A stretch of 55,601 nucleotides of DNA, the filler included, from Basidioascus undulatus (taxonomy: Eukaryota), in the NCBI GenBank assembly GCA_000826855.1. It is 4 parts of 4 records of this genome, joined end to end, with 100 filler letters (N's around TTAATTAATTAA, not from the genome) between each part and the next. Parts side by side here need not be neighbours in the genome. Positions count along the whole stretch, not along the records: positions 13,938 to 27,773 come from JTLS01000783.1; 3 more parts are not named here. One strand, written 5' to 3'. A program made the position numbers and the translations under genes. How positions within the stretch are numbered: the first letter of the stretch is position 1; the number at the start of each line of letters is the position of its first letter. Shown piece by piece: positions 8,065-54,350 of the stretch. Below the pieces are notes generated by a model. The model ran no database searches. It was not told the origin of the DNA and saw only the letters and a program-made list of their open reading frames with translations.

Positions 8065-9591
8065 TCAGGACCCGCCGGTGACGAGGTTCTGGTACTGCGG
8101 GCTCGAGTTCTCGTACTCCTTGAGCAGGAGCGTGTCCCGGTTCTTGATGATCCACCTAGGGAGCGAGCGGGCATGCGTGTCAGCGGGTATTGGGCGAAAA
8201 GCGATAGGGCAGCAGCCGCAAGGAAGTGTGTTGTGAAAGCGGGGAAGGGCAAGGAAGGGAGAAGCGCCACGCACTTCAGCAAGTCTTGCACGTGCTCCTG
8301 GAGGACCTTGACGCTCTCCGCGTCGATTGTCGTGAACGCCAGCATAGCCGGCAGATTGACTGCCGCCGCCCCCGCACCTCATTCAGCTCACCCATTCCCT
8401 CTTCTGCTCCCTCGCCCCACTCACCGATCAGCCTTAAAAAGTGTTCCGCGCCATAGACGAAGCTCATCTCCCTGCCCTCCTGCCCCTCGGGGACGTCGCG
8501 GTCCACGCGCTTGCGCTGCTCGACGTACTGCGGGCGCTCGAACCGGTAGAGCAGGTTCGCTCCCAGCGCGCGGTTGAAGTAGAGCTCGAGCCCGGCGAGG
8601 ACTTCGAGTAAGACCGCACGCGCTTTTGGGTCGGCGAGGGTGGAGGTGGTTTGGGCAGAGGAAGAGGAGGCGGAGGAAGGGTGCTGTGCGAGGTAGGTTT
8701 GGAGGAAGTCGTGCACGCTGGGCTTTCGGGGGAGGGGGACGAGCTGCGGGGATGGGGAAGGTGGGAAGGGTGAGATTGGGACTCGCGCGAAGGAAAGAGG
8801 GGGTGGGAGGACGGTGCGGATGAGAGGGACGCACTTGGTTGTTCTTCGTGATCGCCTCCCAGTCATCCACGAGCTGGACCTTGAGCGTATCGGGTATGGG
8901 GATCCGAATCTCCGGCCTCTTCAAGTACTCCGCCTCCTTCATCCCTCATTCCCCGATCAGCCTCCGTTCCCATTCCCTCCCTCCCGGTTCCCTTCCGGAC
9001 GCACCGTATCCACCACGCTCTCCCTCCCGCGCTTGCGGTCCGACCCGCCCGCGCCCGCGCCGCTCGGGCGGTCTTTGCGCTTGCTTGAGCTCGACGAGGC
9101 CGCGGACCCCGAGGCGGCCTTGGTCGACTCGACCAGCTGCTTCTGCTTGAGCCGGTTGTCGTCCGTCATCTTGAGCATGCGCGTCTCGGGCACCCACTCG
9201 TCCCATCTGGGGCGGCGTAACTCCGGAATGAGCATCACCGCACCCTCGTGGTTCTTGCGCAGGAATAGGAATGGAGCAGACGGGATGGACACGCACTTTT
9301 GTTTCCACCCCTTGTAGTGTACGAGATAGTGCGGCCCCGGCGTATCCGCGTCCGTCCGGTTCTCGATTTTGAGGACCTGCACCCAGTACCCGCTCATCAG
9401 CCTCGAATGTGACCATCTTCGGAGCGCGATCGAGTGCGTGAGAGACGGACCTTGGCCTCGTACAGAAGCGGGCCATGGAAGCAGAGGACGGTCTCCTTCT
9501 CGGCGTAGTTGAACGCCCTGTGAGCCCCGGGGACCTCCGAGTCAGCCTGAATGATGTGGTGAGATTGTGCAACTTATTAGTATACGGACAT
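8065..9591 (-). CDS. EAF3: Eaf3/MRG15 chromodomain + MRG domain protein
   Basis: [84 protein letters not shown]. Confidence 0.95.
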
Positions 9592-16725: not shown

Positions 16726-17984
16726 CCGACCGCCCTCTAGGAGCGCCCACAATGATCAAGCCGGCTAGAAATGTTTATTGGAAGTCGTTTTTCTACAGTT
16801 CATGTAAATGGACTGGTTGTGCTCGGAATGGAGCGGCTCAACGATGCAGTGCTCCTGCAGCAATCGTGTAGCATGTAGCAGTTTATGCTGAATCGAGGAA
16901 GTCGTTCCTATATTGACTTTCGATGAACCTTCTCTTGCACCTGGGGCACAGCTGCGCGGCGTTTAATTGCAGCCGCCTGAATGCTGGAACATCGTCCGCG
17001 TCAGGCGTTGATGGCGGCGAGCTGTCGGTGAGCGTCTGTGGGAGGCTTGAAGAAATTGGCACTGCCTGAAAGGGGTTTACTTTCATTTGAGGGAATCGCG
17101 TACATGTTACCCCTATCTAACCTGCATATGTTGGTAATGTACCTAGCCAGGGTACGAAACTGGAAGATGGACAGTTCTCGAGCTCTAATCAGCTGTTCCC
17201 GATTCATCTGCATGGCAGTGGCTCTGTAATCTATGAGGAGGCATGCTACTCCGATGATACTTAAACGCTGATACCTACCTCATGTCCATTTTCATCAGTT
17301 CTTCCTTGGGTCTGCCAAGTTTCGCTGCACGAAACAGGTAAGCATGGGCACTGGTCTTGGTCCTCGACTTGCGGAGTGATCACTTGACAGAAAGTCGCAC
17401 TCTTAATTCCAAGAACGATTGTCGAACGTCCAGCTGCATAATATTACCTGAACACTTCTCGTTGCTTCGTATTAAAGCAAGTGTTATCGGCGGTTGGGTG
17501 AAAGGGGAGGAGCAGCATGCACAGAGCGCAGCCAACGATAGCCTGCGGGGCCAAAGCGGCGAAGGCCAAGACTGCATCCCCGGACTCCTCAACCCAAATT
17601 GGGCCGCAGTGTCTGCCTGAAACCGGCGGCAAGTTGGCCTTCTCCGGCGCCATCTCATCACTTGGGCTCTCGAAGCAATTGGGGAACGATCGACAATGAT
17701 GTCAGCCTACCGAATTAGTGGAAATATCGGGCCGATGCAGTCGTTTTGCCCTCGTGCAACTTCGCCGGCACCGCTCCAGCTTCCCTGCCCGTCAACTGCT
17801 CATGTGCCTGGCAATTTCAGGCCGAGCTCGCACCATGGTGCCATGGGAGAATAAATAGGTCCTTGGGGACCCTCAGAGCGCTATCCGTTTCCCCACTTTC
17901 CCCAAACTCTCGTACATCAGTCGCGGCGGATTCCCCGTTAATCCCCGCATCTTCCTCCTCACGCACCCAGACTCACGGGCCATC

Positions 17985-20900
17985 ATGTCAACAAACGACA
18001 AACGCTTCTTTGCCCACGACGAGAAGCCTAAGGTCTTACATAACGACTATGTCACCGACCGCACGTCGGTCAGCTCGGGACAGGACAGCATTGCGCCGGA
18101 GCTGGGCGAGGAGACGATCCTGGCAGCTCGGGGACTGTACAAGGGCAAGCTGAGGGGGAGGGTCAGTATCTGTCGATTCATTCAGACAATATTACCGTTG
18201 AATACTGAGATGGGCATACAGAAATTGACGTTCGCAATCGCTGTGATTGCGGGTGTCGTGAGTAGTTTCACCTCAGCTGGCCCAACCCTCAGACTGACGT
18301 GCGCTCCGTCTTGATCAGGGCTTCACGCTGTTTGATAAGTGTAACTTTACGGCCACTTCCAGTTCTCGCAAGCTAACAGGCACTCGATTGCATTTCTCTA
18401 CGCTACGACCAGGGCGTGCTTTCTAGTCTGCTCAGGTACGAGTTTCTTATCGCTCGCCCATTGTTGCCTCCAAGTTCTCATTTGGGATGGCGGTCTACAG
18501 CACCAAGACGTTTGAGGAGACCTTCCCTCAAACCGTCTCTCCGGAAGGCGGCGAGCAGGACGGCCATGCAGCTACGCTGCAGTCCTTCCTCGTGTACGCG
18601 GATTTGTGAACCTGTCCGCAGCCAACCTACTGACGCTCCACGCTCTGCCGCGATACAGCGCCATCTACGAGCTCGGATGCTTAGCTGGTGCACTCAGTAA
18701 CTTGTGGGTTGGAGACCTGCTTGGTCGTCGGGTGAGTGGTATTTCGTTGCACAGGCGCGTCAAGGGGCGCTCACAGTCCCGTCTCGGTTCAGCACACCAT
18801 CTGCTTGGGCGGGGCAATCATGACCGTGGGAGCCATCCTGCAAACCGCGGCGGTCGACTACGCCATGATGCTGGTTGCGCGGGTTGTTACCGGTGTCGGC
18901 AACGGGTACGCAGCATCCTCCCTTCGAGAACGATCGGCGGGAGCCAAAGCTTGACCTACAATTTCTTGTACGACAGCCTTCTCACCTCCACAGTCCCTTC
19001 TTACCAGTCGGAGTGTGCGCATCCCGAGAAGAGGGGCAAGCTGGTCATGATTGAAGGCGTGAGTCTCAAAGCCAGTCGTTGACTGTCGCTCGACCAGTTG
19101 TACTGACCCTCCCCCTACTTTCAGGCCCTCATCACTTTCGGCATCATGATTTCCTACTGGATCGACTTCGGATTCTACTGGATTGATTCCAGCTCGATCC
19201 AGTGGCGTTTCCCTGTGTGCGTCATTTGCGCTGCGCGAGCCTAGTGGTTGGCATGGACTGACAGAGTGGTTGGCGATTCGATTGGGAACAGCGCTTTCCA
19301 AATCGTGAGCATACCTTACGTCTGTCAGAAGTGGTTTTAAACTCAAACACGACTGCTTTTTAAGGTCTTTGCAATCTTCATGATTGCCGGTATGTACGGC
19401 CTTCGTCTGCCGGAATCGCCTCGTTATCTCGTGCGTGTCGGCCGCAACGAAGAGGCTCTGGCGGTTCTTGCCGCGCTGGACGATGTCGAGTACGCCTATT
19501 TTGTCCCTTGCCATGTGATATATTTCCATTCTAACACTCCAATCCAGTGTCACAGACCAGCGTGTGGTTCAGGTTAGACCCCATCCTGCTGGTAAAGGCC
19601 AAGCATACATGCATGCTGACACTTCGCGCTTGCAACCTTCTCAGACTTGGAGGGGTATCTGCGACGTCGTGAACGTGGAGGACTCCCAGAAATTCTCTTT
19701 CGGTGAACTTTTCACCCACGGCCGCGGTCAGGTCAGCAATTTTTGCAATGGCTGAACGAGTCGGTCGAGGTCCTGGTACTGAAACCCTCTACGAACAGAA
19801 CTTCCGCCGTACTATTCTCGGCATCGCTGCGCAGGCCTTCCAGCAGGTCTGCCCTCAAAGTTGAAATTGCTCCTTGAAACCTCTTCACTGACGGCAGCTT
19901 TCGAAACCTTACAGCTCACGGGCATCAACTTGATCGTGCGCAAATTCCCTAACCTCATTACACGGCTCGGCGCTAACCTCTGAAAACGTCCTCCAGACCT
20001 ACTGTAAGCAACACCCCTCCGATCATACCGCACGATGCAACGCTTACGCCTACTCATACTCTACAGACGCCACTCTGCTCTTTGAGCGCCTCGACCTCGG
20101 CCCAACCAAGAGCCGCATCCTCTCGTCTTGCAACGGGACCGAGTACTTCCTTGCCTCGCTCGTCGGTGAGCCTTGATGTCTTTTGCATCTTCACATGATC
20201 CTCGCCCTAATCTGTGTCTATTCGACAGCTATCTATGTAATCGAGACTCTGGGTCGGAGGAAGCTCATGCTCGTCGGCGCTGTTGGCCAGTACGTTTCCA
20301 CTTCGCAATCCTTTCCGGGCTTGACCGAGTAATCTCCAGAGCGATCACGATGGGCCTCCTCGCTGCCTTGGACGCAACAAACACCCAGCCGGGCCGTTAC
20401 GTTTCTGCTGTAAGCCACTTCGACCCTCCAGAGCTTCTTCCCACCACGTAGTCCCGCTTATTCAACGGCGCGCATGCGAACAGGTGCTCCTCTTCGTTTT
20501 CAACTCGTAGGTTCGGTTGCCCTATTTTGGCGTCATTCTTCATTGTAGCTCACATTGGCTTCCTGAAGCTTCTTCGCCTTCGGCTGGTTGGGAATGACTT
20601 GGGTGAGTTTCCCACGTTACAGTCTTGCTGGCGGAACACTCACTGATTTTTACGTGCAGCTGTACCCTGCTGAAATTGTCGGCCTCCGGATTCGCCAACC
20701 CGCCAACGCCCTGTCCACCGCGAGCAACTGGATCTTCAACTTCTGTAAGCAAGCCCACCTGCATTCGGCCACCAATTCACGCACTTACAAGGGCTACTTT
20801 CAACAGTGGTCGTGATGATCACCGGCCCTGCGTTTGCGAACATCCAATGGGGCACCTACGCTGTGCGTTGTTCCCAAACTTGATGTTGTTTAAGCAAAGT

Positions 20901-21309
20901 CTGATAGATGGAACGCATAAATTGGAAACAGCTATTTGCCGTTCTCAATGCACTGCTAGTCCCCAGCGTGTACTTCTTCTTCCCTGAGTAAGCATTCTGT
21001 CAGTACCACCAACACTAGCACGGTCGTTGACCATTTTCGTCCCGCAGGACCAAGGGCCGCAGCCTCGAGGGTAAGCCTTCTACTTCCTCTTTGGCAGACA
21101 CTTCAGCAAAATGGCTCACGATCCTTTATACTCCCACAGAGATGGACCTCGTCTTTGCAAAGGCGCACAACGACGGCGTCAGCCCCGTCAAGGTCGCGTT
21201 GCAGCAGCTCCCTGCGCCCGGCTCGGTCGAGGCGGAGATGATCCTGGGACGGGACGACGTTATTCGCCAGCGCCAGAGCGGGCGGAAGAGGGAGGACGAC
21301 TCCGTTTGA
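17985..21309 (+). CDS. MFS sugar porter (STL1-like), 26 exons including one AT-AC intron
   Basis: Hand-spliced open frame: GFTLFGYDQGVLSSLL, GDLLGRR, VPSYQSECAHPEKRGKLVMIEG, PESPRYL, FQQLTGINLITYYAT, GWLGMTWLYPAEI, FPETKGRSLEEMD. Confidence 0.93.
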
Positions 21310-21728
21310 AGGAAGCTCGTGCTTAATATCGAGCCTTGATACCTTTTCCTCCTTGGCTTGGACATGTATATCTCAGTGTACTTTTGTAGTCCAATTCACA
21401 GCTAATGAACTTGGCCACGAGCCTCGACAATGCTCCGTCGCTTGTAAAGTCCAAGCAGCATCATCTGTGCTTCAGAGCCACGCTCATTCAGCAGGGCAAC
21501 AGAGCAGCTAAAAATGCATTAGCGGAGAGGGGGGTGGTGGGCAAGGAGTAGCTATGACAACAATAGTGCGGGATTGTGAATTTGGGAGAAATTGAAGACG
21601 TACTTGGGACAGAAGAGCGTATGTAGCACAAGCTCAGTGATTGCAACCGACAAACGACAATGAGGCGACTGGACTCTCCGTACCCACACCCAGTACTCTG
21701 CCATAGAACAATCAAATAAAAACCCACA

Positions 21729-26319: not shown

Positions 26320-27773
26320 ATGGCGACCTCCCGCGACGTGCGCGACGTGCTCTCCCTTCCCAGCGCGGGCTCCTCCTCCACCCCTACCCCCGCGCCCGGG
26401 GGGCACAAGCCGAAGCGGGGCAAGCCCCCCAAAGGCATGTCGCGCGAGCTCTTCGCGCTCATGGGCGACAACGCGCCGAGCCTCGTCGCCGCGCACGAGC
26501 GCGAGCAGCAGCGCTTCAAGAAGAAGCCAGTGCTCCGCACGCGCGCGGGGAAGTGGGAGTGGAGGGAGTTTGAGAATGGTGCGAGGAAGGACGGGCTGAG
26601 GCTGAGCCATTGGGTGAGGAAAGATGAGCGGGAGGAGGAGGGTGCGTGGGCGGCTTCCTTGTTCTTTCTTGGGTGTGTCTGGGTGGAGCGGCTGATGCTA
26701 CAGGGAGGGGATCGGAACAGGAGAGTACAGGTTCGCAAAGTTCAACACCGCCCCGCAGCCATACTCCTACTCCCAAGACGAATACGAGCGTCACCTGAAG
26801 GGTGCGTTCCGTCCTTCCCCTCCTTCCCCTGTCCACCACACAGTCTGACGCGTTACACCGCACCAGACGACGACTGGACGAAAGCCGAGACGGACTACCT
26901 GATCTCGCTCGTGCACGACTACAACGTCCGCTGGCCCGTCATCATCGACCGCTACGACTGGCTCGCGGTCGCCCCGCCCGGCGAGGTCGGCGCGGGGCGG
27001 GAGGAGCGGACGCTGGAGGTGCGTTTCCGTCTCCTTTCCTCTCTGGCCCCGTAAGCTGGGAGGAGAAAGCTGAGTGGGGGTGGGTGCGTGGGGTGCAGGA
27101 CCTCAAAGCGCGCTACTACTCCATCTGCCGGAAGCTCATCCGCACGCGCATCTCGTCCGACGAGTCAAACACTGCGCAGCTCATCCAGTCGTACCAGTTC
27201 GACAAAGGTCCGTCTCTCATCCCCCCTCTCCCTCTCCTCCCTCTCTCCTTTCTCCTTCCCTCCCCTTCCCCCGAGCTAAATTTATTTTCATCGCGATTCG
27301 TAGAGCGCGAGACGCTCCGCAAAGCGTACCTCTCCTCGCTCTTCTTTCGCACGCCGGAGCAGGTCGCGGAGGAAGAGGCGCTGTACGTCGAGGCGCGCCG
27401 GATGGAGGCGGACGAGAAGCGCTGGCGCGCTGAGAGGGAGGATGTCATTCGCACGCTGGGGCTGCAGGGGCGGCGCGCGACGGACGGCGCGGAGGACAAG
27501 GTACGCTCTTTTCTCCCCCTCCCTCTCCCTCTCCCTCTCCCTCTCCCCCTCCCCAACATTCTCCCTCCCCGTTTCCTGAAGAGTCGGTTTGTGGTTTGGA
27601 TGCTGATTGCGGTGCGGTGCGGTGTGGTGGGACCGACAGAAGAAGAAGAAGAGGGAAGACCGCGCAGAGCCGGGGCAGATCATGATCGGCTCGGACGGGG
27701 CGGAGCCCTCCTCCGCAGCATCCAAGAAATCCGCCAAATCCGCCTTGTTCGGTGTGTGCCCATCCCCTCCCTC
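26320..27773 (+). CDS. SWC4: Swc4/Eaf2/DMAP1 (3' end lost in gap)
   Basis: GMSRELFALMGDNAPSL, WEWREFENGARKDGLRLSHWV, DWTKAETDYL...RWPVIIDRYDW, RTLEDLKARYYSICRKL, RTPEQVAEEEALYVE. Confidence 0.95.
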
Positions 27774-27873: not shown

Positions 27874-30764
27874 CGTTTGGTGTTAGCTTGAACAGAGGAC
27901 GGGGCCGGAAGGCTCATCCCTGCTCGCGCTCGCATGGAACAGGCCCCGCCGGCACCTTCAGGTGCATTCGCTCATCCTCCACCTCCTCCGGCTCCGACCT
28001 CGGGCTCCGCACCCGCACTGGCCCAGCCGCCTCCTTCAGCTGCGACAGACGTCCCTCTGGACGGGTATGCCGACCCGAGCACGACGGTCGACGACTTCAT
28101 GCTTATGCGCATTCGCAACATGCTTTCCGTGCGTCTGGCTTCCTTTCCCTAACATTAATCGCCGAGGGCTCAAGAAGAATCGGAGACTGAACCGCGACGT
28201 TGGGGTACCAGTCCATCCCCGACCTCGACACCCACCCGCTCTATACCACTTCAACCATGTCCGACGCGCTCCGGCTGTATTGGCGGTTCTTCCATTCGCG
28301 ATGGCCCATCATCGTACGTCCCTTCCCCTTTCACAGCAGGGCTTCTACGCCTTGCTACTCTCGGCTTACCTGACATTGCTGACGGTGATTGCAGCACCGT
28401 CCAACATTTAACGCGACCCTCGCGCCTCTCACGCTCGTCGCGCTGATGTGTGTTGTCGGTGAGTCGGCAAATCGCCGCACAGGGAAAGGAAGGTGGAGCA
28501 CGACGCTGAACAGAGAGGGAGATGGCAGGCTTGCACTACAACCCCCTCAGCGAGCACGACCGCTGCGTCGCGATCGCGCAGCGTCTGCGGGGGCTCCTTC
28601 TAGCTGTGCGCGCTCCCACTTCCCCTCTCCTCCTATCTCCTCCCCCATCTCCTTTTCGCTCGACTAATTCCCGAGATGGCCCATCCATCCGCAGTCGGAC
28701 GACTTCAAGCCCCGCGTCTCCGTAACGGACATGCAGACGCTCGTCCTCGCGGGCATCTACTCCCAGTTCATGGGCAACCTCGAAAGCCATGACCTCTCGG
28801 CGGCATGGTGCGGGTTCGAGCAGACGCTCGCACGGCGGAACTCGCTGTTCACGGGGTGGAGGCATCCGGTGCGTCTTCTTGTCGTGAAATGAGCAGAGGT
28901 GTGCGGGGACCTGACCTGGGAAGGGCGGCAGAATCAACCAGCGGAGGGCGATTTGGAGGGCCGGTGGAAGGCGTGGGCGGACGAGGAGGTCATGCGGCGG
29001 TATATCGGTTTCCTTGTGCTCACTGACGCTACTGGTGTGGCTTTTGGAGCTGATCTTGAGTGGTTTGTTCGTTGGTTCAGAATAGCGTTCTGCATCTTCA
29101 TGCGCGAAACCGAGTACGCCTCGCTCTGCCGGCAGCTGCCCACGCGCGCGCTGTCCGCGTTCCACATTCCCATATCGCTCCCGTGCGACGAGTACTTTTT
29201 CGGTCTGCCCACTGCGGTGCGTTGCTCCCTTTCCTACTCCTCATCCTCATCCTCATCCTCATCCTCCTCTCCGATTTCCGCTAACGCCCGGAATGTGGTG
29301 GCGCACGGACAGGAGCTCTGGACGACCGCCGCGCCAAGCATCGTCCCCGTCCAGTTCCCGCCCGCACTCAAGAAAGCGTTCCAGGGCGAGCGGCCATCCC
29401 CCGGCCCTGAACAGGATATCAATATCTTCAGCGAGAGCATCATTTTGCATGGACTCATGAGCAGTGCGTTGGCGTTCCTGTTCCGCGTACGTGCCAGGCT
29501 GAAAAGAGCGCGCAGTCTCATGGGACATGCAGTGGCGCGGGACGATGGGCGTTGTTTCCCAGGAGAGCGGCGTGGCGAATTGGAGGAGATGTGAGTGCTT
29601 GGTGTGTGCTTTGCGAGGGGTTCGGCAGCTGGTGGCTGACTTGCGTTGACGTACTTCTGCGTAGATCTGCAAAACGCTTACGACGTACGCTTGCTTTACT
29701 CTCCGATGCACACAATGGACTTACTAAACGCTTTGTTTACCCGCAGGCGTGGATGAACCGCCTCACGAAGCGTGCGGTCGCCCCCGATTGCCCGCAGCTG
29801 CACGCCGCGTGCGACTTCCACAGTCTGGCGCAGATGGAATCTCTGACGGACATGTGCGTGTTCTCCCCGACTCACTATCTTATTCGACGGGGTATTATGT
29901 ATGAGCTACGTGCTCACTCGTCAATCCGGCACAGCATCGCTCTTCAAGTCTTCGCCGGCATGCCCGTCGTCGGGAATCAGCGCATCACGCCCGCCGAAGC
30001 AGAAGCCTCGGAGCGCCTCATCCGCGCATGGGCGAGCTCGTCGGACGGCTGCCGCGCGGCATGGCACGCCGCCGCGTACCTTCACGGCGTGCTCGAGTAC
30101 GTGCTGCGCGCGGGCTCCCAGCGCGACCCGCGGAACGTCAGCTCCCACTTTGAGCTCACGATCCATCTGGCTGCGGTGAGTGGTGCATTCGAACGCTCTT
30201 TCAGTTGTGCTGATGAAACTGATGAGACTGATGTGCTTTGTATGGGCTTGATTTGCAGCTCTCGCTTTGGGCGTACACGTTCTGTCTCTCTGGCGCACGG
30301 CGTGCACCGCCTCCTCCGTTGACTCGGAGTGTCATCGCGCCCGGAACGGAGCTGCAGAACTTAGCTGTATGTCTCTCCTCTTTCTCCTTCGATACATCCT
30401 CATGCCCCTCGCGCGGTCCTGACACACCCTTCTCATGCTGTGTAGGATGCGATTGCCGCTACCGAACGCATCCTAGTCTTCACCTCACTCTCCACCACGA
30501 GCGACCCGTCAAGCGTAGGGACGTTGACCTGCCGGGAGGGCATCGCGACGTTCCCGGCGGTCATCCAGCTCATGCGCCGGAGTCGTTGGGAGACAAGTAA
30601 GCCCATCTGTTCAGCCGTGCGACTACAAGATAAGCTGACAAGGGGATGTCTCAATAGTCCATTCTTTCATTGCTCTTCTCGAACAGCTCGCCGGCATCCC
30701 GCACGACGGCGATAGCCTCGGCACCGGCGCGCTCAGGTACGGCACGCTCGGGCTCGCCTGTTGA
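27874..30764 (+). CDS. Fungal-specific transcription factor domain protein (5' DNA-binding part not in window)
   Basis: LRLYWRFFHSRWPIIHRPTF, WKAWADEEVMRRIAFCIF, ISLPCDEYFF, WASSSDGCRAAWHAAAYL; spliced to TGA 30762-30764. Confidence 0.8.
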
Positions 30765-43130: not shown

Positions 43131-45660
43131 CGGAGCGTTTAACCCAACTTCCGTCAAAAACAACTTCGAGGACCGATGATAGGCTTCCTATTCCAACCGT
43201 ATTGGTCGCTCGTAAGATCCTGGCCGTCTTTCGTTTGTCTGCACATGAATTTGCACTGCGTTGTGCCATCTGCTGGTCGCGCTTAGCCCTCTCTACGGAA
43301 CTCTTCGCTGTTTGACCTGCCCTTGCTGATGGTGAACTTGAAAATTCTATGGCGAAATATATGTTCTTGGGCTGGGGTGCCTTTCAGTTTGTTTCAGTTC
43401 CGAACGGGGAAAGACGGACCGTCTCGGTAGATTATCTCGTCTTGGAGCGTCCGCAGGTTGCCGAACGGCCATCCTCTCACCTCTCATACTCACGCTGTAA
43501 ATCAAGCGCGCAAGTATCTCCTTCTGCTCTACTTCAAAAGACTGTTCTACAGACATGAGCGCCAGCCCTCTTCCCGAGGATGACATCTCCCTTATCTTCG
43601 GCGTTCGCCACCGCCGGTACGGACGCGAAAGCCGCAGCGACCCGACGCGCTCTTCCACTCGTCTGCAAGAGACTCGATATAAGTTTCATGATCTGCAGAG
43701 ATGGCTAACCCTCTCCGAATAACCAACGAATGTAATTGCAGGCCCTCGCGCAACACGACCTCTTCGAGATGATTGCGCTGCGTGCGGTCCCTGCATTCGA
43801 TCGATCTGCTCTATCAGAACTTCCTTCAGTTGGAAGAGAATAGTTTTCCCACTGCTCAACGCGTTCGCGACCCAGCGTTTACATCCCCAAGGATTCATAC
43901 TCCGTGTCAGTCAGCTGGCTCGACTCGACTTCAATGGTCTCCATTCCCTCCTCACCCGCCTAAGCTCTTTGACTGTCTTGGAGACGATCACGAACTCTGT
44001 CCTTGTTGGGGCTATGAAGTTGGTCTGCAGACACTCGACACACTGAGCCGAAGCTGCGCTCTCAGCTTGAAGCCCAAATCGACGTGACGCAGACTGGCAG
44101 CCTCGGGGTGGCAAGAGCTGGGCTAGTCCTTTCGTTCTGACCAGATTCAAAAACCTTCGAGCGCTGGCCCTATCCTCGAACGGTGCGCGTTTACCAAGCG
44201 CCGAACCGTTGCCCATAGCTTTACCCCCAGTGGAGATTCTTGATCTCAACGACACCGTGACCAGGTAGTTGAGCAGCTCGTTGTAGTCGCAGGCGATCTT
44301 CGCTTCACTCCGCGTTTTGGCAATAAAACTAGAACCAAAACCTCCGCCACGTCTCATCGAGGTTCTTTCGACGTCATGGGATGAGCCTGGCGGAGCTCTC
44401 CGTCAAACTGCTCGCCAGCACTGCCCAGCTTTCTGCTGCTCTCGCAGCATACTACAAGCTTCACAAGCTCACGCTTCTCCGCAACCACCAACCAGTCTCA
44501 GCAAAGTTTGTTACCGCCTTGCCATCGGCACTGAAGTACATGACTCTCCACGTGCCCGACTCGTCCTCTAATTGCCGTGACTTGCTTGGAAGGTATTCTA
44601 ACCCCACTACGCACGGCGGGCCTAGAAACCCTCGAAACAGTTGCTCTGATACTCCTCTCATACCTTTTTTTTCCACTTGGGACACGGCGGACTCGACCTG
44701 GAGGGGTTGGGCATACGCCTGTGCGACGAGCAGCACAGAGTGCTTCGCGTGCTTAAACAGGTTGTCTAAAGACAGTGCCGAATGACCTTGCGGTGTTTTT
44801 GGGTTGAATGGGAGAACCTGACTTGCACTGAGAGTCTGACAAGCTGTGACCATGCATGCACGGAAGAGTCTACTACAGACTTATTTGCCTCTGTCATTTC
44901 TGTCCTTGATACCACCTGTAGTCGCTGTACTCTGTAGTGACCATTGCGTCCTTTGCACTTCTCACCGCCCTCAGTGGCTTCTGTGCCTTTCATCCATTAC
45001 CCATTGAGCATAAACCCATCTAATCGCAACTTCATTAACCTTTCATAACTCGAGTTCAATTCTCCATTGTGTGGGAGAAGCACCAGGGTCTGCGCGCAAG
45101 AATTCGGGGGCAGCGCTGTGACCCAGAGTGTTCAAGTTGGCCTCATTTTTTCTCGTACTTATCCATTGTCAGGCTTCCATTCAAGCGGCAGATGAACCAC
45201 TGCAATCTTCGAAATTGCGAGTTACATATGCGCCGTATATTCTCAAGTCCATCTCGACCTCACTTGGACGCCTCTTAACTTCCGGAAAGACTCGCCCAGA
45301 CTAAAATTATTTATGTTACATTTTCTTATAATTCAATGTAAGCTTGGCTGGGGTAGTGGTAACCTGGGTCGTTGCCATCGGATTTCGACCCGCCCCGTGT
45401 TCGATTCACGGGTCAAGCACATGATTTTTTTCTCAGCCAGTGAGACTGTTGTTGGACAATGGATACTCCAAAGGCATAATATAAGTAGGGCAAGCTCATA
45501 TTAACAAGTCACCGCAAAGTGTCTCTTGCAAAAAACAAATCATGCATGTAAACACGCGTCTTCCATGCGTGCGATGGCGGTTGAGCCGGTGGCCGGGTGT
45601 GCACAACCAAGTGACCTTCTGGTATGGGTTGAAAGAGCGGGCAAAACGTTTGAGGCTACT

Positions 45661-47289
45661 CTATTGGGACTTCCCAGCGCGCTCCTTTGGGGTCGCCTTT
45701 CTCGCTTCGGCCTGCTTCTTCCGGTACGCGTGGAAGTGAACGTCGGTGCCGAGCAGCAGTGCCCTGTGTAAGTCCACAAAGGTTTCTATCAGTGAGCAGC
45801 GGTATAACACGAGGTTGAACGGAAAACTTGTATACTGACACCACTGCAACATCCGCGAAGCCCGCCCGGTTGTCAGCTAAAGCGCGAGCACGAGCGGGAG
45901 CAGACGATATCGCACGCGGAAGTAAGAGGAGAAGCACTCGTGGAATTTCTCGTGGTGATAGTCGTCTGGAAGGGACATCTACCTGTCAGTCGCAAATTGG
46001 GACCTTGTAGGCTCAACGTCGAGCCTACGGTGATCAGCCCCGGCCCAGAACGGCAGGAACTTGTTCAACGACCACGGGAAATCGTAGCCACTGTGGGAGT
46101 CTAAAGAAAGCTTGAATCTGGACTTTGCCACCTGTAAGAGGGTTGAAGATAGTACTCACCGATGGCTTGGAAAAGCCGGAGAACGATCCACACATACATG
46201 GTGAGGATGTGCAGGTTGCCGGAAACCGCAGAGTACATAATCGGGCCCCCCACAGTCCCAAACCTAGTTAAACCGACTTCAATGGGTGAGCGTATTCGGC
46301 GCACTGAAGTATAAGCGAAATATTTCGTCCATGGGCCGTGTTAGTGGGGTTAAGCGAAGTAATCAGAGTAGGAAGACTCACGAGACCGAAAGGCGCAGAA
46401 TACTCATGATGGAGTTTGTGTACGTGCTTGTACAACGACGTGCTTGTACAACGGATGCCAATGGAGCATTCGATGTAATATGTAGTGCCAGAGGTCTTCG
46501 AAGACAAAGAAAATGGCAATCTGCCAGGCCATCGTCGAAATCGAGGGCAAGGGTAGCTGGTATGTCTTCATCCCAAAATGTTCGGCGATCCTGTGGGCAA
46601 TGCCCAAGAGAGCGTAGTCAGAATAAATTGGCAGAATTCATATCTGTTCAGGTTCGCGCTTGGGGAAAAGGACGCACGGATGGAAAGCCCAAATCTGGGG
46701 AAGCTCGATGGTCAAGTGCTGCAGAAGGACAAGTTTGGTGCAGCGCCACTGATCCCCAGGCGAGGGGACTTTGCCCTGGGGGACGTCGAACAGTTAGAAG
46801 TAGATCCGGATACTATGGATGTTATCCGTAGCCATGTGCAGGGGTGGATAAGGATAGGGAGACTAGGCGTACCGGCTGCAACTTGTACTTGCGGAAGAAA
46901 GGAATCGCGTCGATTATGATCCAAGGCAACGAGCGACCGAAATAAACAATCTGCGGGACCGAGTTATACAGTCAGACACTTGTTAGTTTGCCCCGGAGAA
47001 CTGACGCGAATTGGCAACCGAAAGGTCGAACCTCGTGCATCAGGAAGCTCATCATTCCTGTGGCGATGACGGGGTTGCCCCACCAGATGTAATATTGCGC
47101 CCAAAGGTTCTAATGCCGCAGAATACTTATCAACCCTTCCAGAACTTCCAAAAGTCTTTAAACGAGGAGGACGCACCTCGAACCAGTTAAGTCTGTCCAG
47201 ATCGATCCCCCCGTACAAGTCGGCGCCCTGCACCGCAAGCGGCTGGAAGTATGTCGACGTGTTGTCTGGAGACGAGCAAGCGTCTCCAT
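45661..47289 (-). pseudogene. ERG25: C-4 methylsterol oxidase with multiple frameshifts
   Basis: [76 protein letters not shown]. Lesions at about 47268, 46422-46453 (16-bp tandem duplication) and about 46280. Confidence 0.88.
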
Positions 47290-52160: not shown

Positions 52161-54350
52161 ATGGCACCCGTCGCTACCAACACTTTTTACACGAACGGCC
52201 ACGCCGCCGCGTCCTCGCCCTTCGCGGCCGAGCTGTCCCCGCAGCCCGTTCACGCGACGGCGGCGCGCCGTGCGACGACGCTCACCGTCGACTCGCCCGA
52301 CGTGAGCTACACCGAGGAGGCTATCACAGCGAAGTACGAGCACCGCGGCGCACGCGTCGACCGTGACGGCGACAAGATCAAGGTCACGCCGACGGCTAAG
52401 CAGTGGGAGTTCAAGACCGCCCGCAAGGTCGGCAAGACAGGGTCAGTCCTTCCTTACTTTCTGGTCCGCATTGGGAACCACGGTCGGCTTATGCCTTATG
52501 CATTGGCAACGTTAACAGTCTCATGCTTGTCGGCCTCGGCGGCAACAACGGCACGACGCTCGTCGCGACCGTGCTTGCCAATAGGCACAACGTGTCGTGG
52601 CGCACCAAGACCGGCATTCAGACGCCCAACTACATGTGCGTATCTGCCTTTTCGAAAACCCGCATAGTGTGCACAGCTCAATCGTATCGCCCCACAGCGG
52701 CTCGGTCACGCTCGCTTCGACCGTCCGTCTTGGCTCTGACGCCGCGGGCAACGACGTCAACGTTCCTTGGACCGATGTTCTCCCGATGGTCCACCCGAAC
52801 GACCTCGTCCTCGGCGGCTGGGACATCTCGAGCGCTCCGCTCGACATCGCCATGCGCCGCGCCGAGGTCCTCGACTGGGACCTTCAGCGCCAGATCGCGC
52901 CGCTGATGGCCGAGTACAAGCCGCTGCCGTCGATCTACGTGCGTCCTTCCTGCGCTCTTTTCGAGGGTGCGGCCTTTGTTGACATGCGTCTCATACGCTA
53001 CCACAGTACCCCGACTACATCGCGACCAACCAGTCCGAGCGCGCCGACAACGTCCTCGACGCGAAGGAGTACCCGACCAAGCAGTCGCACGTCGAAAAGA
53101 TCCGTAAAGACATCCGCGAGTTCAAGGCCGCGCACGGGCTCGACACGGTCGTCGTCTGCTGGACGGCCAACACGGAGCGCTTTAGCTCGGTCGTCCCCGG
53201 CAAGACGGACACGCCCGAGAACCTGCTCAAGAGCGTCGAGGAGTCGTTCGAGGAGATCAGCCCGTCGACCATTTTTGCCATTGCCTCCATCTTCGAGGGC
53301 GCCCCCTTCATCAACGGCGCGCCGCAGAACACGTTCCTCCCCTCGGTCGTCCGCCTCGCCGAGCAGAAGAAGTCATTCATCGGCGGTGACGACCTCAAGA
53401 CTGGCCAGACGAAGGTCAAGGTGTGTCGTCTTTCCCTTAATGTGCTTCGCCTCCCGCCCACTTCCTGACTACGATTTTGTGCACGCCAGTCGGTCCTCGC
53501 CGAGTACCTCGTCAACGCTGGTATCAAACCGCTCTCGATCGCGTCGTACAACCACCTGGGCAACAACGACGGCCACAACCTCTCCGAGGACCCGCAGTTC
53601 AAGAGCAAGGAGTGAGTCCCCGCCACAACATGATGGTTCCCGCGGCGTCGGCGGTGTCTCTGACCTCACTTCTTGCGCAGGATCACCAAGCGCAGCGTCG
53701 TTGACGACATGGTAGACGCTAACCGGCTGCTCTACAAGGAGGCCGACAAGTCCAAGGGCGAGAAGAAGGGCGAGCACCCTGACCAGTGCGTTGTCTCGCT
53801 GCATTCCCCTTGCGCCGAATCGGAGTCTGAACGAGCGCCCCATTTACAGCATCGTCGTGATCAAGTACCTCCCGGCTGTCGGCGACGACAAACGTGCCAT
53901 CGACGAGTACAACAGCGAGATCATGATGGGCGGCCGCAACGTCCTGTCGATCTTCAGTGCGTTTGCTGTCCCTCTCGCCACCCGCTTCTCTTCCGCCTTC
54001 GTTACCCGCGCCACCGATGTCTAACCCGACTTTCTCCTGTCACAGACATGTGCGAAGACTCGCTGCTCGCGACGCCCCTCCTGCTCGACCTCACGATCTG
54101 GACGGAGCTCTTCACGCGCGTGACGTACCGGACCGCGAGCGAGGGCAAGAAGGACGTGGAGGGCGACTTCCAGCAGCTGCACAGCGTACTCTCGCTCCTG
54201 TCGTACATGCTCAAGGCGCCGATGACCAAGCCCGGCAACGAGGTGGTCAACTCTCTCGGCCGTCAGCGCAACGCGATGGAGGCATTCGTGAAGGCTTGCA
54301 TTGGCCTAACCCACTCGAACGACCTCAACCTTGAGTCGCGCACCAACTGA
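52161..54350 (+). CDS. INO1: Myo-inositol-1-phosphate synthase
   Basis: [89 protein letters not shown]. Confidence 0.97.

Follow-up and report, generated by a model that had tools for sequence, protein, structure and literature searches.

Does the major spliceosome of a basidiomycete fungus remove an intron whose ends are AT and AC? The question is raised by positions 18335–18401 (+ strand) of a 55,601-nucleotide stretch of Basidioascus undulatus DNA (hereafter the window), where 67 nucleotides with these ends interrupt the glycine codon of the conserved LFGYDQG motif in a sugar-porter gene. An earlier note on this DNA had read the segment as a U2-type AT-AC intron. Our analysis points the same way: the segment is probably a genuine U2-type (type II) AT-AC intron in a functional sugar-porter gene, a reading from sequence to which we give a probability of roughly three in four.

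The sugar-porter gene and the junction required by homology

The gene was modelled with our own spliced-alignment script, by which a Kockovaella imperatae 'general substrate transporter' (P0001), the single match of a 41-amino-acid exon query in the protein collection, was aligned to the DNA. The model begins with an ATG at 17985 and ends with a stop codon at 21307–21309. Removal of 25 introns leaves a coding sequence (CDS) of 1719 nucleotides, with 572 codons and one stop, which is terminal. All of the introns other than intron 3, the AT-AC candidate, are GT-AG (24 of 24) and 50–75 nucleotides long, which bears out the earlier note's description of 24 canonical introns and an intact frame. 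Two further 'introns' in the alignment (17887–18073 and 21272–21401) were spurious products of local alignment where the termini diverge, and we left them out of the model.

The predicted protein is 63–65% identical to Agaricomycete homologues and 57–59% identical to Tremellomycete ones, and the homologues named by the protein search were Basidiomycota without exception. The top blastp alignments extend from residues 1 to 56 through residues 553 to 572, at 57–65% identity, to proteins that carry PF00083. Four exon frames match Pfam PF00083 (Sugar_tr) in colinear order, one of them above the curated cut-off. Full-length homology and a score of 824.6 bits against the A1 profile hidden Markov model (HMM) place the protein in the Sugar porter family, including the motif of transmembrane segment 1 (TM1). 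A 55-amino-acid query from the last exon had no match in the protein collection, and neither the gene's own protein nor a near-identical one, nor that of a close relative, was found there.

Joining position 18334 to 18402 restores GFTLFGYDQG. We allowed the spliced aligner to use GT-AG, GC-AG and AT-AC introns, with the highest penalty on AT-AC, and it chose the 18335–18401 junction for five of five homologues and then for 117 of 120. The AT-AC model gained a median of 33 score units over the model restricted to GT-AG and GC-AG, despite the higher intron penalty, and the aligner still chose the same junction when all 256 terminal dinucleotide pairs were permitted. The exact GFTLFGYDQG sequence occurs in 111 of the 120 homologues. 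Nine lack it in their first 160 residues: three carry one-residue variants, and in the other six the motif pattern is not matched, owing to N-terminal truncation of the gene call (three), a variant motif (two) or a motif beyond residue 130 (one). Three Logan-derived proteins (P0023, P0025 and P0026) start at a methionine directly after YDQGV, so that the N terminus and the motif are absent; these resemble products of automatic gene calling cut short on contigs with introns. Residues F64, L66, G68, D70 and Q71 do not vary in an alignment of 23 sequences.

Two further results bear on the uniqueness of this junction. Dinucleotide shuffling of the 144-nucleotide gap between exons 2 and 4 (18258–18401) produced GFTLF, whatever the frame, in 1 of 5000 shuffles, and because of this rarity exon 3 is real, or was real until very recently. 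We also enumerated exhaustively the ways of bridging exons 2 and 4 with GT-AG or GC-AG introns that keep the frame and avoid a stop. There were 19 with a single intron and 269 with two, and none of the 288 restored FGYDQG. The earlier note's claim that no junction other than the AT-AC one rebuilds the motif therefore stands, whereas its argument from reading frame is incomplete, as in-frame GT-AG alternatives exist. The one such option that the note had named, GT at 18339 with AG at 18379, removes 41 nucleotides and is out of frame, as it had said.

The main canonical alternative uses GT-AG sites only: the strong GTGAGT donor of intron 2 at 18258 would be joined to the AG at 18378–18379, exon 3 would be skipped, and exon 3 with the ATAAGT behind it would be a dead relic. 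The resulting intron (GTGAGT..TAACAG) would give ...IAGV-ALDCISLR-YDQG, with ALDCISLR in place of GFTLFG, in a protein of 574 amino acids that is in frame and stop-free. Its sites are typical for this gene, with scores of 3.5 (donor) and 2.4 (acceptor) on the position weight matrices (PWMs) described below, and an aligner restricted to GT-AG and GC-AG placed the acceptor here for 115 of 120 homologues (with the donor at 18255 in 113, at 18258 in one and at 18243 in one). However, the product loses the family-invariant residues F64, L66 and G68 and scores 803.4 bits on the A1 profile, 21 bits fewer than the AT-AC model. The intron would be 122 nucleotides long, against 50–75 for all 24 GT-AG introns, and its AG lies only 2–3 nucleotides beyond the sole nearby CTRAY branch motif; the next branch motif upstream, ACTGAC (18292–18297), meets the AG at 18317–18318 first. 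Skipping also does not account for the survival of exon 3, which encodes GFTLF perfectly and follows a good acceptor. This alternative is in frame as the exon 4 frame runs open through the 22 nucleotides at 18380–18401 (ALDCISLR); that openness is unremarkable and is probably due to chance, with only seven codons involved. We consider exclusive use of these sites quite unlikely.

Other in-frame solutions were rejected on the same profile. GT-AG models with introns at 18339–18426 and 18258–18412 scored 788.8 and 783.4 bits, both below the 803.4 of the exon-3-skipping model. An AT-AC intron that stops short at 18383 scored 809.6 bits (15 lower than the full AT-AC model); it would add six residues within the motif and place its 3' end just 7 nucleotides from the branch A.

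The earlier note's expectation that standard gene predictors would miss the AT-AC intron is plausible: for 113 of 120 homologues the aligner restricted to GT-AG and GC-AG gave a model that was in frame but lacked the motif. An annotation limited to GT-AG would not fail visibly, because the exon-3-skipping model stays in frame; it would yield a protein with eight wrong residues for the six invariant-motif residues in TM1, and the error would go unnoticed.

Splice signals and the spliceosome they fit

We built donor and acceptor PWMs from the 24 GT-AG introns of the sugar-porter gene. Scored without positions +1 and +2, the donor of the AT-AC intron reached 4.7, in the middle of the range of the 24 (−0.8 to 7.6). 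It carries a complete TAAGT at +2 to +6, a feature absent from all of the 24, and it matches CAGGTAAGT at six of nine positions, compared with three to seven for the other introns of the gene. Its putative branch A lies 25 nucleotides from the 3' end; in the 12 GT-AG introns with a CTRAY match this distance is 13–30 nucleotides. The pyrimidine fraction over −15 to −4 is 0.75. Sheth et al. (2006) recognised U2-type AT-AC introns by a 5' splice site that matches the U2-type consensus except at +1 (PMC1557818). Intron 3 has such a site and, at the junction that homology requires, AT and AC ends; its branch site and pyrimidine tract are of the ordinary kind, and the earlier note's account of its coordinates, its donor (GTAAGT with G replaced by A) and its U2-type branch point agrees with the sequence throughout. 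Splicing in vivo, the spliceosome responsible and the efficiency of removal are inferred.

U1 and U6 would recognise the 5' site through the perfect TAAGT despite the A at +1, and U2 would pair with GCTAAC, with 18376 as the branch nucleotide. At the second step, the A at the first base and the C at the last would form a compensating non-Watson–Crick pair where G normally meets G, and exon 3 would thereby be ligated to 18402 instead of to a site behind an AG. The spliced product would regain the TM1 motif.

U12-type introns have the 5' splice site ATATCCTT and the branch site TCCTTAAC about 10–15 nucleotides from the 3' end. The 5' site of intron 3, ATAAGTGT, is unlike that consensus, and its branch motif is GCTAAC at the greater distance given above, so that it carries neither the donor nor the branch consensus of the minor spliceosome, as the earlier note had seen. 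AT-AC ends are typical of a U12-type subclass (PMC7072748), which is what would favour a minor-spliceosome intron here. Against this, the part of the pan-eukaryotic survey by Larue and Roy (2023) on which we draw found Ascomycota and Basidiomycota to be without convincing minor introns and describes Dikarya as lacking them (PMC10639083), in line with the earlier note's remark on Dikarya. Rfam detected no small nuclear RNA in the window, a result that says little for 55 kb. We regard a U12-type intron as barely credible.

An assembly or sequencing error, with a true intron of GTAAGT...TAG, is very improbable. It would need two independent substitutions, one hitting precisely the first base of the intron and the other its last, that happen to yield the compensating A and C, and there is no ambiguity or low-complexity sequence at the intron ends.

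Related loci, origin of the ends and points of doubt

We compared the gene with 80 related metagenome loci, eight of which were aligned in full, at 52–61% identity; no close relative was among them. The nearest case comes from another intron-rich basidiomycete lineage: three near-identical loci (L077, L079 and L080), whose proteins are 59% identical to that of the window gene, have a GT-AG intron in the glycine codon of LFGYDQG, one base downstream and in phase 2 (TTTGG|GTGCGC...TTATAG|A). They have 21 called introns, about 17 of them in the conserved region; 2 of the 21 share the exact position and phase of window-gene introns, and several others are 1–7 nucleotides off. An apparent AT-AC intron at the same motif in L048 and L049 proved to be a 33-nucleotide GT-AG intron, obscured by the aligner's 35-nucleotide minimum length. 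In L044 the aligner's AT-AC call was likewise spurious, the underlying intron being a canonical GT-AG one, and AT-AC calls in L042 and L058 came from alignments scoring 49 or less.

Substitution of both end bases in place would be the simplest origin of the AT-AC ends, and it leaves the one-base offset from the intron of L077 and its kin unexplained. We see a slim chance for a joint proposal, in which an older intron moved by one base as the AT-AC ends arose and the path that skips exon 3 is a real splicing switch. If the sliding were true, the locus would show, in nature, an intron caught while sliding by way of non-canonical ends; if the switch were true, the gene would choose between a functional transporter and a form with a changed TM1.

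The same comparison bears on whether the gene is sound. A recently disabled or splicing-defective copy (a pseudogene or strain-specific allele), with one or both terminal changes new and with intron 3 retained or mis-spliced, would fit the absence of an intron at this position and phase from the 80 related loci, and retention of intron 3 creates a premature TAG stop at 18424–18426. What speaks against such a copy is that A at +1 and C at −1 are exactly the compensating pair (PMC1557818) and that TAAGT is perfectly preserved at the 5' site. The remainder of the gene is without lesion, with its other introns canonical, 572 open codons and 63–65% identity along its length. We therefore hold a defective allele to be unlikely, and a functional gene with a U2-type AT-AC intron remains the reading we prefer.

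Five points weigh against that reading. No intron at Gly77 in phase 1 was seen in any of the 80 related metagenome loci, and conservation of the AT-AC ends is thus unseen. The acceptor, scored by PWM without positions −2 and −1, reaches just −2.0, near the bottom of what the GT-AG introns span (−2.9 to 5.9). Open-frame canonical alternatives exist, as enumerated above. The placement of the DNA among basidiomycetes, probably in Agaricomycotina, draws solely on protein similarity and intron style. Finally, the bare signal pattern is no commoner in the window than chance would make it: AT[AG]AG[TC]..CT[AG]A[CT]..[CT]AC has four matches on both strands of the window, compared with 3.3 ± 2.0 in 40 Markov simulations, and the GT-AG analogue has 22 matches against 4.9 expected. 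As the bare pattern is not above chance, the case rests on protein homology and not on the motif pattern. The earlier note's interpretation is supported in part: its core, an AT-AC intron with major-spliceosome signals, is backed by homology, by the intron's own signals and by the literature, whereas its frame argument is incomplete and its double substitution and rate-limiting splice are proposals.

The other three pattern matches are on the minus strand. Those at 46344–46407 and 546–622 were rejected as AT-AC introns, with stops in all three joined frames; for 9520–9577 one joined frame is open.

Table 1. Features of the sugar-porter locus, with the phase 2 intron of the related metagenome loci
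Feature	Position	Strand	Basis or remark
Sugar-porter gene (MFS, Sugar_tr)	17985..21309	+	Spliced alignment to P0001; 26 exons, 25 introns
Exon 2, 36 nt, KLTFAIAVIAGV	18222..18257	+	Sequence and spliced alignment
Intron 2, 61 nt, phase 0, GTGAGT...ACTGAC...GATCAG	18258..18318	+	Canonical ends
Exon 3, 16-nt micro-exon GGCTTCACGCTGTTTG, GFTLF and first base of Gly codon	18319..18334	+	Sequence, alignment
Candidate U2-type AT-AC intron, 67 nt, phase 1 in Gly codon of LFGYDQG	18335..18401	+	Spliced alignment
5' splice site ATAAGT (U2-type GTAAGT with A at +1)	18335..18340	+	Sequence, PWM
Putative branch site GCTAAC, branch A 18376, 25 nt from 3' end	18372..18377	+	Motif
AG of the in-frame GT-AG alternative (intron 18258–18379)	18378..18379	+	2–3 nt past branch A
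3' splice site TAC behind pyrimidine-rich tract TTTCTCTAC	18399..18401	+	Sequence; CTCTAC ends at 18401
Exon 4, 34 nt, starts GCTACGACCAGGGC; GC completes Gly codon, then YDQGVLSSLL	18402..18435	+	Sequence, alignment
GT-AG intron in Gly codon, phase 2	L077:3413-3460, L079:2615-2662, L080:2639-2686		Three near-identical metagenome loci

The intron density of the sugar-porter gene is extreme, at 25 introns per 1719 nucleotides of CDS, and its shortest exons are 7 nucleotides (19997–20003, part of the conserved GINLITYY motif), 13 nucleotides (19292–19304) and the 16 of exon 3. Homologous loci of other basidiomycetes have about 5–21 introns, at positions mostly different from those of the window gene. 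Comparison of all pairs of the 25 introns revealed no notable similarity (best global score 11; at most 2 for intron 3), and no paralogue of the gene was found within the window.

The window as a whole is fungal DNA rich in short introns. On the plus strand, two long open reading frame (ORF) stretches at 52597–54350 match Pfam NAD_binding_5 (myo-inositol-1-phosphate synthase; E values of 1.6e-26 and 2.6e-20) and are probably one INO1-type gene split by introns. An ORF at 26320–27054 (+) has a SANT/Myb-like DAMP1 domain (E = 2.6e-11), and another at 28899–29594 (+) has a weak, sub-threshold match to a fungal-specific transcription factor domain (E = 5.6e-4). ARAGORN predicted the sole tRNA of the window, tRNA-Gly(GCC), at 45342–45420 (+); Rfam gave no match in the window at its gathering threshold, this tRNA included.

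Comparison with known AT-AC introns

Introns of this class are rare and already documented. U2-type AT-AC introns made up 24 of the 610,067 introns surveyed by Sheth et al. (2006), and fungal xylanase genes have been hypothesised to hold them (PMC1557818). AT-AC junctions accounted for 0.03% of introns in SnowyOwl models of A. niger, P. chrysosporium and T. lanuginosus (PMC4084796) and for 69 of 14,305 junctions in Trichoderma longibrachiatum RNA sequencing (PMC4324775), and Frey and Pucker (2020) describe them as rare across fungal annotations (PMC7072748). At a frequency of roughly 0.03% of introns in Dikarya, tens of AT-AC introns are expected per intron-rich genome, and finding one is therefore unsurprising. 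If confirmed, the window intron would be a further natural case of AT-AC splicing by the major spliceosome, in a fungus for which absence of the minor one is reported; it adds one instance to a documented class and opens no new question.

With U12-type AT-AC introns, intron 3 shares the terminal dinucleotides only: its 5' site and branch site differ, its branch-to-3' distance is longer, and the minor spliceosome is reported as absent from its lineage in the part of the survey on which we draw (PMC10639083). With the AT-AC junctions of Dikarya it shares the terminal dinucleotides in fungi reported to be without minor introns, although those reports, in the parts on which we draw, give frequencies rather than this gene or position and leave internal signals uncharacterised (PMC4084796, PMC4324775 and PMC7072748). 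The major spliceosome is able to splice AT-AC introns because A and C at the intron ends compensate for each other: in U2-type introns of yeast and human, a change of the first G to A was rescued by a change of the last G to C, 'although less efficiently' (PMC1557818). It is this general remark that stands behind the earlier note's idea that the splice may be rate-limiting. The window intron has the same pair of ends as these engineered mutants, which were spliced less efficiently, but here the pair is natural. Its closest counterparts are the type II AT-AC introns of human SCN4A and SCN5A and of TAF2 in human and Drosophila, with which it has in common the AT...AC ends, a U2-type 5' site, an ordinary branch site and a pyrimidine tract. 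Whereas those animal introns are conserved or tested, the one described here is known from sequence alone, and it differs from them in being a 67-nucleotide intron of a basidiomycete sugar porter that lies beside a 16-nucleotide exon.

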